From: a virus
Lineage: Duplodnaviria > Heunggongvirae > Uroviricota > Caudoviricetes
DNA length: 23,053 nucleotides
IMG/VR virus record: IMGVR_UViG_2537562020_000011
Span: 1-23,053 of that record
Strand: one strand, 5' to 3'
Shown here: piece after piece, positions 15,001-17,305 of the stretch
Position numbering within the stretch: the stretch's first letter is position 1
Layout of the letters: every line of letters starts with the position of its first letter
Program-made: the position numbers

Positions 15001-17305
15001 TCAAAAAATGTCTTGATTTTTTACGCATAAACTGTTTCAATCCAGCTACGCTTCGCAAAGCTATACCGCGAGGCGAATAGCAGACATGGACACCTGAAAG
15101 AACCCGCTTTATGCGGGTTTTTTTGTGCCCGAAAAGCGGTACAGGACGTTAAATGCGCTGGTGGTTGCGAATGCCGGTCTTTCAGCTTGCTGGCTTTTTC
15201 GACAAGAGGTATTGGTATGTCACGTTAACCGGGAAAGGGAAAAAGGCATGCTAAAACAGCAGGATATGACCGAAACCGCCAGAGTGGTGTTTAATGAATT
15301 AAGCATCACCGAACCGGCGACCGTCGGGGAAATTGCGCAGAATACTTACCTTTCACGCGAACGCTGCCAGTTAATACTGACTCAGCTTGTTATGGCGGGT
15401 CTGGCAGATTATCAGTTCGGTTGTTACAGACGCCTTCCGCAGTGAAGGCTTTTTAATTTGTGGTAATGGGCGGCTGGGGGGTGTTAGCGGCACCTGCCAG
15501 CCATCTGCTCATGCGTTGGGGTCACAAGCAAACCTCAGGCCCATCTGCTTTGCGCAAAAGCGGTATGAGCCTATCAGAGAAGTGCTTATTGATCTATGAT
15601 TAATACTGTAAAAATATCCAGTTGTGAGTTAATCAACGCTGATTGCCTGGAGTTTATCCAGACCTTACCGGAAAATTCTGTCGATCTGATAGTCACAGAC
15701 CCGCCATACTTTAAAGTGAAGCCCGAGGGCTGGGATAACCAGTGGGAGGGCGACGATGATTACCTGAAATGGCTGGACCAGTGTCTGGCGCAGTTCTGGC
15801 GGGTACTGAAGCCTACCGGAAGTCTTTACCTGTTCTGTGGTCATCGCCTGGCATCTGACACCGAAATCATGATGCGTGAGCGCTTTAATGTGCTGAACCA
15901 CATTATCTGGGCGAAGCCGTCCGGACGCTGGAACGGGTGCAATAAGGAAAGTCTGCGGGCGTATTTTCCGGCAACAGAGCGCATTCTGTTTGCAGAACAT
16001 TATCAGGGACCGTATCGCCCGAAAGATGATGGCTATGTGGCACAGGGGCGCGAGCTAAAACAGCACGTCATGGCCCCGCTGATTTCTTACTTTCGTGATG
16101 CGCGTAAATCACTGGGAATAACGTCAAAACAGATAGCGGAAGCCACCGGAAAGAAAAACATGGCTTCGCACTGGTTTGGTACCAGTCAGTGGCAGTTACC
16201 GAACGAGGGTGATTACAACAAATTGCAGGCGTTGTTTGCGCGTGTTGCGGCAGAAAAACATCAGCGCGGGGAACTGGAAAAACCACACCACCAGCTGGTC
16301 AGCACATACAGTGAGCTGAACCGGCAGTATACGGAACTGCTGAGTGAATATAAAAATTTGCGGCGGTATTTCGGTGTGACGGCGCAGGTTCCGTACACCG
16401 ATGTCTGGACGCATAAACCGGTGCAGTACTATCCAGGGAAACATCCGTGCGAAAAACCGGCAGAAATGCTGCAGCAGATAATCAACGCGAGCAGTCGTCC
16501 GGGAGACCTGGTTGCAGATTTTTTTATGGGTTCAGGTTCAACGGTAAAAGCGGCGATGGCACTGGGGCGTTGTGCGATTGGTGTTGAGCTGGAGACAGGA
16601 CGTTTTGAACAGACAGTCAGGGAAGTTCAGGATTTAATCGTTTGAAACGGATGAGATTGCAGAATTAATTACGCACCATTATTATTCTGCTCCCGGCCCT
16701 TTAGCTCAGTGGTGAGAGCGAGCGACTCATAATCGCCAGGTCGCTGGTTCAAATCCAGCAAGGGCCACCATCACATACCGCCATTAGCTCATCGACAGAG
16801 AGTGCCAGCTTTCGAAACTGGCTGTGTGGGGCTCGGGTCCCCGATGGCAATCCATTATCTGCATTATGCGTTGTTAGCTCAGCCGGACAGAGCAATTGCC
16901 TTCTAAGCAATCGGTCACTGGTTCGAATCCAGTACAACGCGCCACGCTTATTTTTCCAGGCTCGCTTTGGCGGGCCTTTTTCATATCCGCGCCCGTTATG
17001 AAGCGCCACCGCGTTCTGCTAATGCTGAAGCCCTTCGTCAGCTGACTGATGTTGCAGATACTGATGATACTGTGAATGTGCTGTGTCTGTGTCTGGATAT
17101 CGCTGACCAGGACGGTATCGGTCAGGAAGAAGAAGCGCAACTGAAGAAAATTGCGCAGGCGCTGCAGTTGCCGCTGGAGCAGTACCTGTGAAAAGTGCGC
17201 GCCTTGTGCTGGCTGTCATCCTGTTGTTTCTGGTAGTGATGGTGGATTTCACCGGACGACTGATGTCAGTGCTGGCAGATGGTGTGCTGGTGGCGATGGC
17301 GCTGA

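Follow-up and report, generated by a model that had tools for sequence, protein, structure and literature searches.

A degenerate argN, probably a tRNA-Arg(UCG) pseudogene, between two intact transfer RNA genes of a lambdoid prophage

The Shiga toxin (Stx) phage 933W (GenBank AF125520) carries three transfer RNA (tRNA) genes, ileZ, argN and argO, between its Q/pR' region and stx2, and the middle gene is annotated as argN, a tRNA-Arg. The literature on these three genes and on damage to them returned passing mentions only: a 'tRNA-pseudo' was reported in this cluster of stx2i prophages (PMC13641118), and in O157 clade 8 the first tRNA-Arg was described with a 2-base deletion and a single-nucleotide polymorphism (PMC2858043). 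According to a proposal in the general literature, phage tRNAs compensate for rare codons or take the place of host tRNAs cleaved by defence nucleases (Bailly-Bechet et al. 2007, as cited in PMC7946995). Here we analyzed the equivalent cluster in IMG/VR virus record IMGVR_UViG_2537562020_000011, whose positions 1 to 23,053 are referred to as the window, and focused on the tRNA-like element at 16778-16854, which occupies the argN slot of a lambdoid prophage. Orthology with 933W argN, the loss of conserved elements, sub-threshold model scores and ongoing unconstrained substitution led us to assign a probability of about 0.88 to the reading that this element is a decaying argN pseudogene, probably still co-transcribed with its neighbours and no longer usable as a tRNA. 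The element and its anticodon are located as follows.

16778-16854, plus strand: probable tRNA-Arg(UCG) pseudogene, a degenerate argN of allele class 'E1', assessed by Rfam, ARAGORN, alignment to 933W and the Prokaryotic Genome Annotation Pipeline (PGAP)
16812-16814, plus strand: retained anticodon TCG (UCG), within an intact 7-base loop, UUUCGAA, at 16810-16816

The element (CCGCCAUUAGCUCAUCGACAGAGAGUGCCAGCUUUCGAAACUGGCUGUGUGGGGCUCGGGUCCCCGAUGGCAAUCCA) shares with 933W argN its position between ileZ and argO, the spacers, the length of 77 nucleotides, the UCG anticodon, the discriminator U (16851) and the terminal CCA (16852-16854), and the two sequences are 83% identical. They differ at 13 of the 77 positions (G18A, G19C, C20aG, C25U, C32U, G39A, C47U, C49U, U54C, A58G, U63C, G71A and G72A), whereas a 2-base indel is the sole difference in the spacers. 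Transitions account for 11 of the 13 changes and GC-to-AT changes for 8. Three of them, G71A, G72A and G39A, are G-to-A changes opposite a C and therefore produced the three C·A mismatches described below, while the anticodon loop is the least changed part of the molecule, with C32U as its single difference. Judged from this alignment, the gene is argN, already known from lambdoid and Stx phages, and no novel type of tRNA. Damaged copies of it are common across prophages.

When the element was drawn as a cloverleaf, the acceptor stem (16778-16784 with 16844-16850) retained five of its seven pairs, all five Watson-Crick, the two lost positions being C16778·A16850 (C1·A72) and C16779·A16849 (C2·A71). 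The D stem is formed by GCUC at 16787-16790 and GAGU at 16800-16803 and encloses a loop, AUCGACAGA (16791-16799), that is devoid of GG. The anticodon stem pairs 16805-16809 with 16817-16821 and is closed by a third mismatch, C16809·A16817 (C31·A39), next to a loop that keeps both U33 and the purine A37. The T stem (16827-16831 with 16839-16843) carries the loop CUCGGGU at 16832-16838, in which U55 and C56 are kept, T54 is replaced by C and A58 by G. Within the set of nucleotides that build the elbow (G18G19, T54-U55-C56 and A58), G18G19, T54 and A58 are thus gone. The elbow nucleotides G18G19, T54 and A58 are used by RNase P, the CCA-adding enzyme, elongation factor Tu (EF-Tu) and the ribosome. 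Arginyl-tRNA synthetase (ArgRS) of Escherichia coli recognizes A20, C35 and U or G at position 36 as identity elements; C35 and G36 are present in the element, and the D loop is rearranged (AUCGACAGA vs AUCGGGACA in 933W), with an ambiguous placement of A20. All these features, namely the CCA end, the TTTCGAA loop with its UCG anticodon, the two C-A acceptor pairs, the C-A closure of the anticodon stem, the D loop lacking GG and the CTCGGGT T loop, had been listed in an initial annotation of the sequence, and each was recovered at the same positions, with ARAGORN drawing the same cloverleaf once its threshold was relaxed.

The minimum-free-energy fold gave instead a 9-base anticodon loop, formed via G26-C44. 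Folding of this kind was uninformative, since the intact argN and argO of 933W did not return a cloverleaf either, and the predicted stability of the element was nothing unusual in comparison with shuffled sequence (z = -0.4).

The tRNA likeness was then quantified with dedicated models. The Rfam tRNA model (RF00005) matched 16778-16851 end to end with 23.7 bits (E = 0.009 in a search of 351 bases), short of the gathering score of 29 bits, while 933W argN scored 54.8 bits and ileZ and argO 72.5 and 70.1 bits respectively. Sister alleles of the same class were likewise sub-threshold, with 26.4 and 22.2 bits, and no other Rfam family matched at the element. With default settings the calls of ARAGORN were limited to the neighbours (the CAU tRNA, 16695-16770, and tRNA-Arg(UCU), 16868-16944); at 95% of the threshold it also returned tRNA-Arg(tcg) at exactly 16778-16854. 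933W argN was accepted by ARAGORN, with anticodon UCG, as well as by Rfam. In the RefSeq annotation produced by PGAP, nothing was placed under the element in 40 of the 40 E. coli genomes among the matches listed, and the genomes with the identical 351 bases were annotated with tRNA-Ile and a single tRNA-Arg only. The end-to-end match, together with the 83% identity to 933W argN in the same slot, indicates that the resemblance to a tRNA is not due to chance. The initial annotation had proposed tRNAscan-SE or ARAGORN scoring as a check, with a normal covariance-model score and a canonical alternative fold speaking against an aberrant molecule; the Rfam and ARAGORN scores obtained here fell below the normal range.

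We evaluated whether the damage is still accumulating among relatives of the window. A scan based on the class-specific 3' end identified 34 viral-contig loci that, with the window, make 35 loci and 8 alleles, all 8 showing the three C·A mismatches. Parsimony placed 9 additional substitutions within the class (G18A, C25U, C27U, A29U, G43A, G51A, G52A, U55C and C75U), of which G18A and C25U belong to the window's sub-lineage. Four of the nine break further pairs, each in single alleles, two give G·U pairs, and the others are U55C, G18A and C75U, which converts CCA into CUA. No compensatory or pair-restoring change was found in the 8 alleles of the 35 loci. Over the same loci ileZ and argO, 153 bases together, showed no change at all, and if the three genes changed at the same rate, argN would receive all 9 events with a probability of 5e-5.

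The allele class was detected in 84 of 5426 complete E. coli genomes, many of them human enterotoxigenic E. coli (ETEC) isolates; the 5426 genomes hold 7,596 copies of the cluster in all. Strains ATCC 43896 and 504838 are examples with the allele of the window, while ETEC H10407 has a sister allele, its 351-base cluster being 99.1% identical. A 97-base stretch comprising argN and its spacers was identical in at least 8 independent complete E. coli genomes, which excludes a sequencing error. With the 97-base element as megablast query, 50,697 deposited phage genomes gave no match; all loci of the class came from chromosomal prophages or predicted proviruses. Apart from Escherichia species, the scan of the genome_contigs collection contributed two metagenome-assembled genomes (MAGs), labelled Proteobacteria (L150) and uncultured Collinsella (L154), in which the E. 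coli-type cluster is probably a result of bin contamination.

In order to place this allele among lambdoid prophages, we scanned with two anchors, the last bases of ileZ and the first bases of argO, separated by a gap of 80-110 bases, which yielded a sample of 120 clusters with 61 different intervening sequences. Nucleotide diversity across the 120 clusters was 0.003 for ileZ, 0.034 for argO, 0.18 for argN and 0.19 for the second spacer; the exact-match anchors lower the ileZ and argO values somewhat, and the 54 ileZ bases outside the anchor were identical in 113 of the 120 loci. An argN was considered intact when it showed 77 nucleotides, 21 pairs, G18G19, T54-U55-C56, A58, UCG and CCA. Every check was passed in 42 of the 120 clusters, a count of loci and not of independent events in a partly clonal sample, and at least four separate kinds of damage were recognized among the remainder. 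Class B, with about 26 loci, shows A·A and A·C mismatches and G58, and still scores 42.9 bits. The commonest damaged form is class C (about 31 loci, 80 nucleotides), which has no match to the tRNA model; unrelated sequence (…AGACGACACGATAACAGGGTTGTTGG…) takes the place of its anticodon arm, and the G run of its T arm varies from 5 to 12 G among loci (L010, L037, L086, L120 and others). Class D is 66 nucleotides long and has lost the anticodon arm by deletion, and class E is the class of the window. These other alleles lie in the same slot, between intact ileZ and argO genes, with the middle gene damaged or unannotated, and the lesions of classes B, C and D are unlike those of the window and apparently independent. 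In one locus (L021) an otherwise intact argN carries UCU in place of the UCG anticodon (loop CTTCTAA), which gives it the same specificity as argO. In 9 of the 120 loci the T stem of argO showed two changes that compensate each other (CACTGG…CCAGT to CAGTGG…CCACT), indicating that argO, unlike argN, is under structural constraint.

An association with the toxin genes was also apparent: argN was intact in 9 of the 11 clusters with stxA within 1.5 kilobases (kb) downstream vs 32 of the 103 without stx (Fisher p = 0.0016). This association may reflect the linkage and clonality of closely related Stx phages and not selection. In stx2A and stx2B of 933W, 15 of the 22 Ile codons are ATA, 8 codons are AGA or AGG and 5 are CGA or CGG, while ten open reading frames (ORFs) of the window, 3210 codons in all, contain 21 CGA, 52 CGG, 12 AGA, 14 AGG and 21 ATA. 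E. coli reads CGA via tRNA-Arg(ICG) and CGG via tRNA-Arg(CCG). On these grounds argN may be dispensable. Its decay in numerous prophage lineages, next to strongly constrained ileZ and argO genes, suggests that these phages need readers of AUA and of AGA/AGG and not a reader of CGA/CGG. The cluster as a whole fits the codon-supplement model of phage tRNAs through ileZ and argO, whose codons, AUA and AGA/AGG, are heavily used in stx2, whereas the element itself, whose codons CGA and CGG find only modest use in stx2, no longer looks able either to supplement codons or to replace a cleaved host tRNA.

The rate of change of argN was compared with that of the adjacent DNA methylase gene (15596-16645). 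Against modules with an intact argN, the methylase gene differed at 12% of its positions overall and at about 32% of its fourfold-degenerate sites, and argN at 17%, while ileZ differed at 0-2 of 76 positions and argO at 0-1 of 77; such rate comparisons are rough, as the region is mosaic. It follows that argN evolves faster than a constrained coding gene and more slowly than neutral sites, with both neighbours frozen, and this reads as the signature of lost constraint and not of hypermutation. Hypermutation confined to argN had been considered on the basis of the 933W alignment and was ruled out, the flanking methylase gene being equally diverged. The mosaic structure was evident in individual loci. 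Three members of the window's class (L003, L100 and L119) differ from it at 3-4 of 77 argN positions and at only 4-11 of 1050 methylase positions, and one further locus (L060) combines an argN close to that of the window (1 of 77) with a methylase gene differing at 81 of 1050. Both patterns imply that recombination has broken the region at points lying between the tRNA cluster and the methylase gene.

The remaining parts of the cluster, all of which have their counterpart in 933W, are the following.

16657-16685, plus strand: putative sigma-70 promoter (TTGCAG, 17-base spacer, TATTAT), aligning to the 933W 'pT putative tRNA promoter'
16695-16770, plus strand: ileZ, intact, anticodon CAU, tRNA-Ile (AUA) in 933W and PGAP; called by ARAGORN and Rfam and 100% identical to 933W
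16868-16944, plus strand: argO, tRNA-Arg(UCU), intact, called by ARAGORN and Rfam, with one difference from 933W (A37 vs G37)
16958-16985, plus strand: intrinsic-terminator-like hairpin of 8 pairs (6 G-C) followed by a T run, with the 933W terminator annotated at the equivalent place

Both signals flanking the tRNA genes, promoter and terminator, have homologs in 933W. The promoter stretch aligns to positions 1508-1536 of the 933W locus (L001) with both hexamers conserved. A promoter scan of the plus strand with a threshold of 9 of the 12 consensus bases returned no site, the stretch 16657-16685 scoring 8 of 12, and its assignment as a promoter derives from the homology to the annotated pT, its function being predicted on the same grounds. 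The element thus appears to sit within a live-looking transcription unit made up of promoter, ileZ, argN relic, argO and terminator, and transcription probably continues to include the relic, as a spacer that separates two working tRNAs.

These results can be accommodated in a simple sequence of events. The argN gene of the window's lineage would have lost selective constraint, after which mostly GC-to-AT transitions would have opened the top of the acceptor stem and the last pair of the anticodon stem and destroyed the elbow contacts between the D loop and the T loop. The relic would still be transcribed within the precursor and would be released when ileZ and argO are processed. It would not be expected to attain a stable L-shape, to be charged by ArgRS or to take part in translation, and would probably be degraded.

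Several observations weigh against the pseudogene reading, and some of them speak for a functional, if atypical, tRNA-Arg(UCG) that tolerates its C·A positions as wobble-like pairs and is processed, charged and able to read CGA and CGG. The UUUCGAA loop with U33 and a purine at position 37, the CCA end, the length of 77 nucleotides and 18 of the 21 stem pairs are all kept, ARAGORN falls short of a call by a narrow margin, and the three mismatches are the same in 8 of 8 alleles. C·A can form a protonated wobble pair and the E. coli initiator tRNA natively carries C1·A72, so that the three mismatches alone are no proof of lost function. Moreover, the class persists in the 84 complete genomes and in several flanking backgrounds, and the survey counted loci that are partly clonal. 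For some loci, the in-class argN differences (3-4 of 77) also stand against only 0-3 differences at about 154 neighbouring synonymous sites, an excess that we attributed to mosaic recombination, although this is not proved. We nevertheless regard a functional tRNA as very unlikely. Shared mismatches are expected from common descent, G18G19, T54 and A58 are lost, the score is about 31 bits below that of the intact ortholog, and the later hits on U55, on the CCA end and on four stem pairs are uncompensated in loci whose ileZ and argO are invariant. Other specialised forms were also considered and rejected. The initiator tRNA-fMet of E. coli shares C1·A72 with the element and nothing else fits: the element carries UCG where an initiator has CAU, its anticodon stem CCAGC/ACUGG is devoid of three consecutive G-C pairs, a second mismatch is present at 2-71 and the elbow is lost. 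No feature supported a suppressor or a frameshift tRNA with a 9-base loop. Of the initial suggestion of a 'decaying or specialised tRNA', the first half was borne out by the sub-threshold score, the new uncompensated damage and the frozen neighbours, whereas the second found no support, since the anticodon loop is intact but the universally needed elbow and the top of the acceptor stem are damaged.

The remaining alternatives assign a purpose to the altered sequence or to the process that altered it. An exapted tRNA-like RNA, acting as a processing or punctuation spacer for ileZ and argO, as a decoy for tRNA nucleases or as the source of a small regulatory RNA, would explain why the slot is almost never emptied, why most damage classes keep approximately the length of a tRNA and why the 5' (CCGCCAU...) and 3' (...GGUCCA or AAUCCA) ends are kept within an active-looking transcription unit. 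However, empty slots are undetectable by a scan that requires a gap of 80-110 bases, and the absence of the anticodon arm in class D and the wide difference between classes C and E leave no common non-tRNA feature conserved. As argN diversity also equals that of the spacer, the fold is no more stable than shuffled sequence and no other Rfam family matches, we consider exaptation quite improbable. Targeted hypermutation or diversifying selection, for instance in an arms race with a toxin that cleaves arginine tRNAs, would account for the concentration of the 13 differences from the 933W cluster in argN, with near-identical neighbouring tRNAs and spacers, and for the excess over neighbouring synonymous sites in some in-class pairs. 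This explanation appears extremely unlikely, because the methylase comparison shows argN changing no faster than neutral sites and L060 displays the opposite pattern, as recombination mosaics would. Furthermore, the least changed part is the anticodon loop, which anticodon nucleases usually target, universal elements are destroyed and not tuned, and the spectrum is that of an ordinary GC-to-AT transition bias. Finally, since lesions of at least four kinds affect about 65% of the sampled clusters, with both neighbouring tRNA genes intact and the slot still approximately tRNA-sized, the repeated damage to argN might itself reflect selection, either because a UCG tRNA is costly outside stx phages or because the relic is kept as a spacer or decoy. 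We judge this quite unlikely; were it true, the stx association would be consistent with an advantage linked to the cargo gene.

The prophage in which the decaying argN resides was also examined. The window represents a lambdoid prophage and encodes DicF, hok/sok, DUF968, RusA, a Q-like DUF1133 protein and the DNA methylase. Unlike in 933W, no stx follows the tRNA cluster, which is succeeded by a truncated ORF, DUF3927 and a deleted late region, the order being truncated ORF, DUF3927, portal gene, Z/tape-measure fusion, J fragment and insertion sequence (IS) transposase. The features located in this context are listed below.

4524-4575, minus strand: DicF antisense RNA (Rfam, 70.8 bits)
11430-11605, plus strand: sok antitoxin RNA (Rfam, 121.6 bits)
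19330-21804: ORF fusing minor tail protein Z and tape measure
22158-22613: J fragment
22628 (start): IS transposase

In comparison with a close relative (L118), the stretch from DUF3927 to the portal gene lacks about 4.8 kb and the one beyond the portal gene about 3.4 kb; the region concerned is 17340-19416, with junctions near 17482-17485 and 19028/19029. A strain with an identical tRNA block (that of L002) carries holins, endolysin and terminase in the first missing region. The prophage of the window is thus itself decaying, by internal deletion, and the damaged argN allele predates these deletions, since L118 shares it.

Some further small elements were noted in the same region and in related loci. 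A small ORF at 16967-17191 on the plus strand follows the tRNA terminator, at the position occupied by stx in Stx phages, and has no Pfam match; its counterpart is annotated by PGAP as an incomplete pseudogene with a missing N-terminus. Another small ORF, at 11543-11755, overlaps sok and is probably hok. Strong matches to the STnc100 small RNA occur shortly downstream of the cluster in other loci (L016, 6983-7660; L100, 11587-11776; L010, 3592-3782; L011, 2841-3110), L011 also showing an AgvB match, while the window contains only a weak STnc100 match (17.7 bits).

A tRNA pseudogene in a defective prophage carries little weight on its own, and the only mildly notable point is how frequently argN decays by itself. 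The annotation of this common prophage cluster is at present inconsistent: records of Stx phages name the middle gene tRNA-Arg, and RefSeq genomes with the allele of the window have no annotation there, so that counts of phage-borne tRNAs should expect a relic at the argN slot. The wider pattern of a decaying argN between constrained ileZ and argO genes illustrates how constraint can differ among the members of a single tRNA operon.

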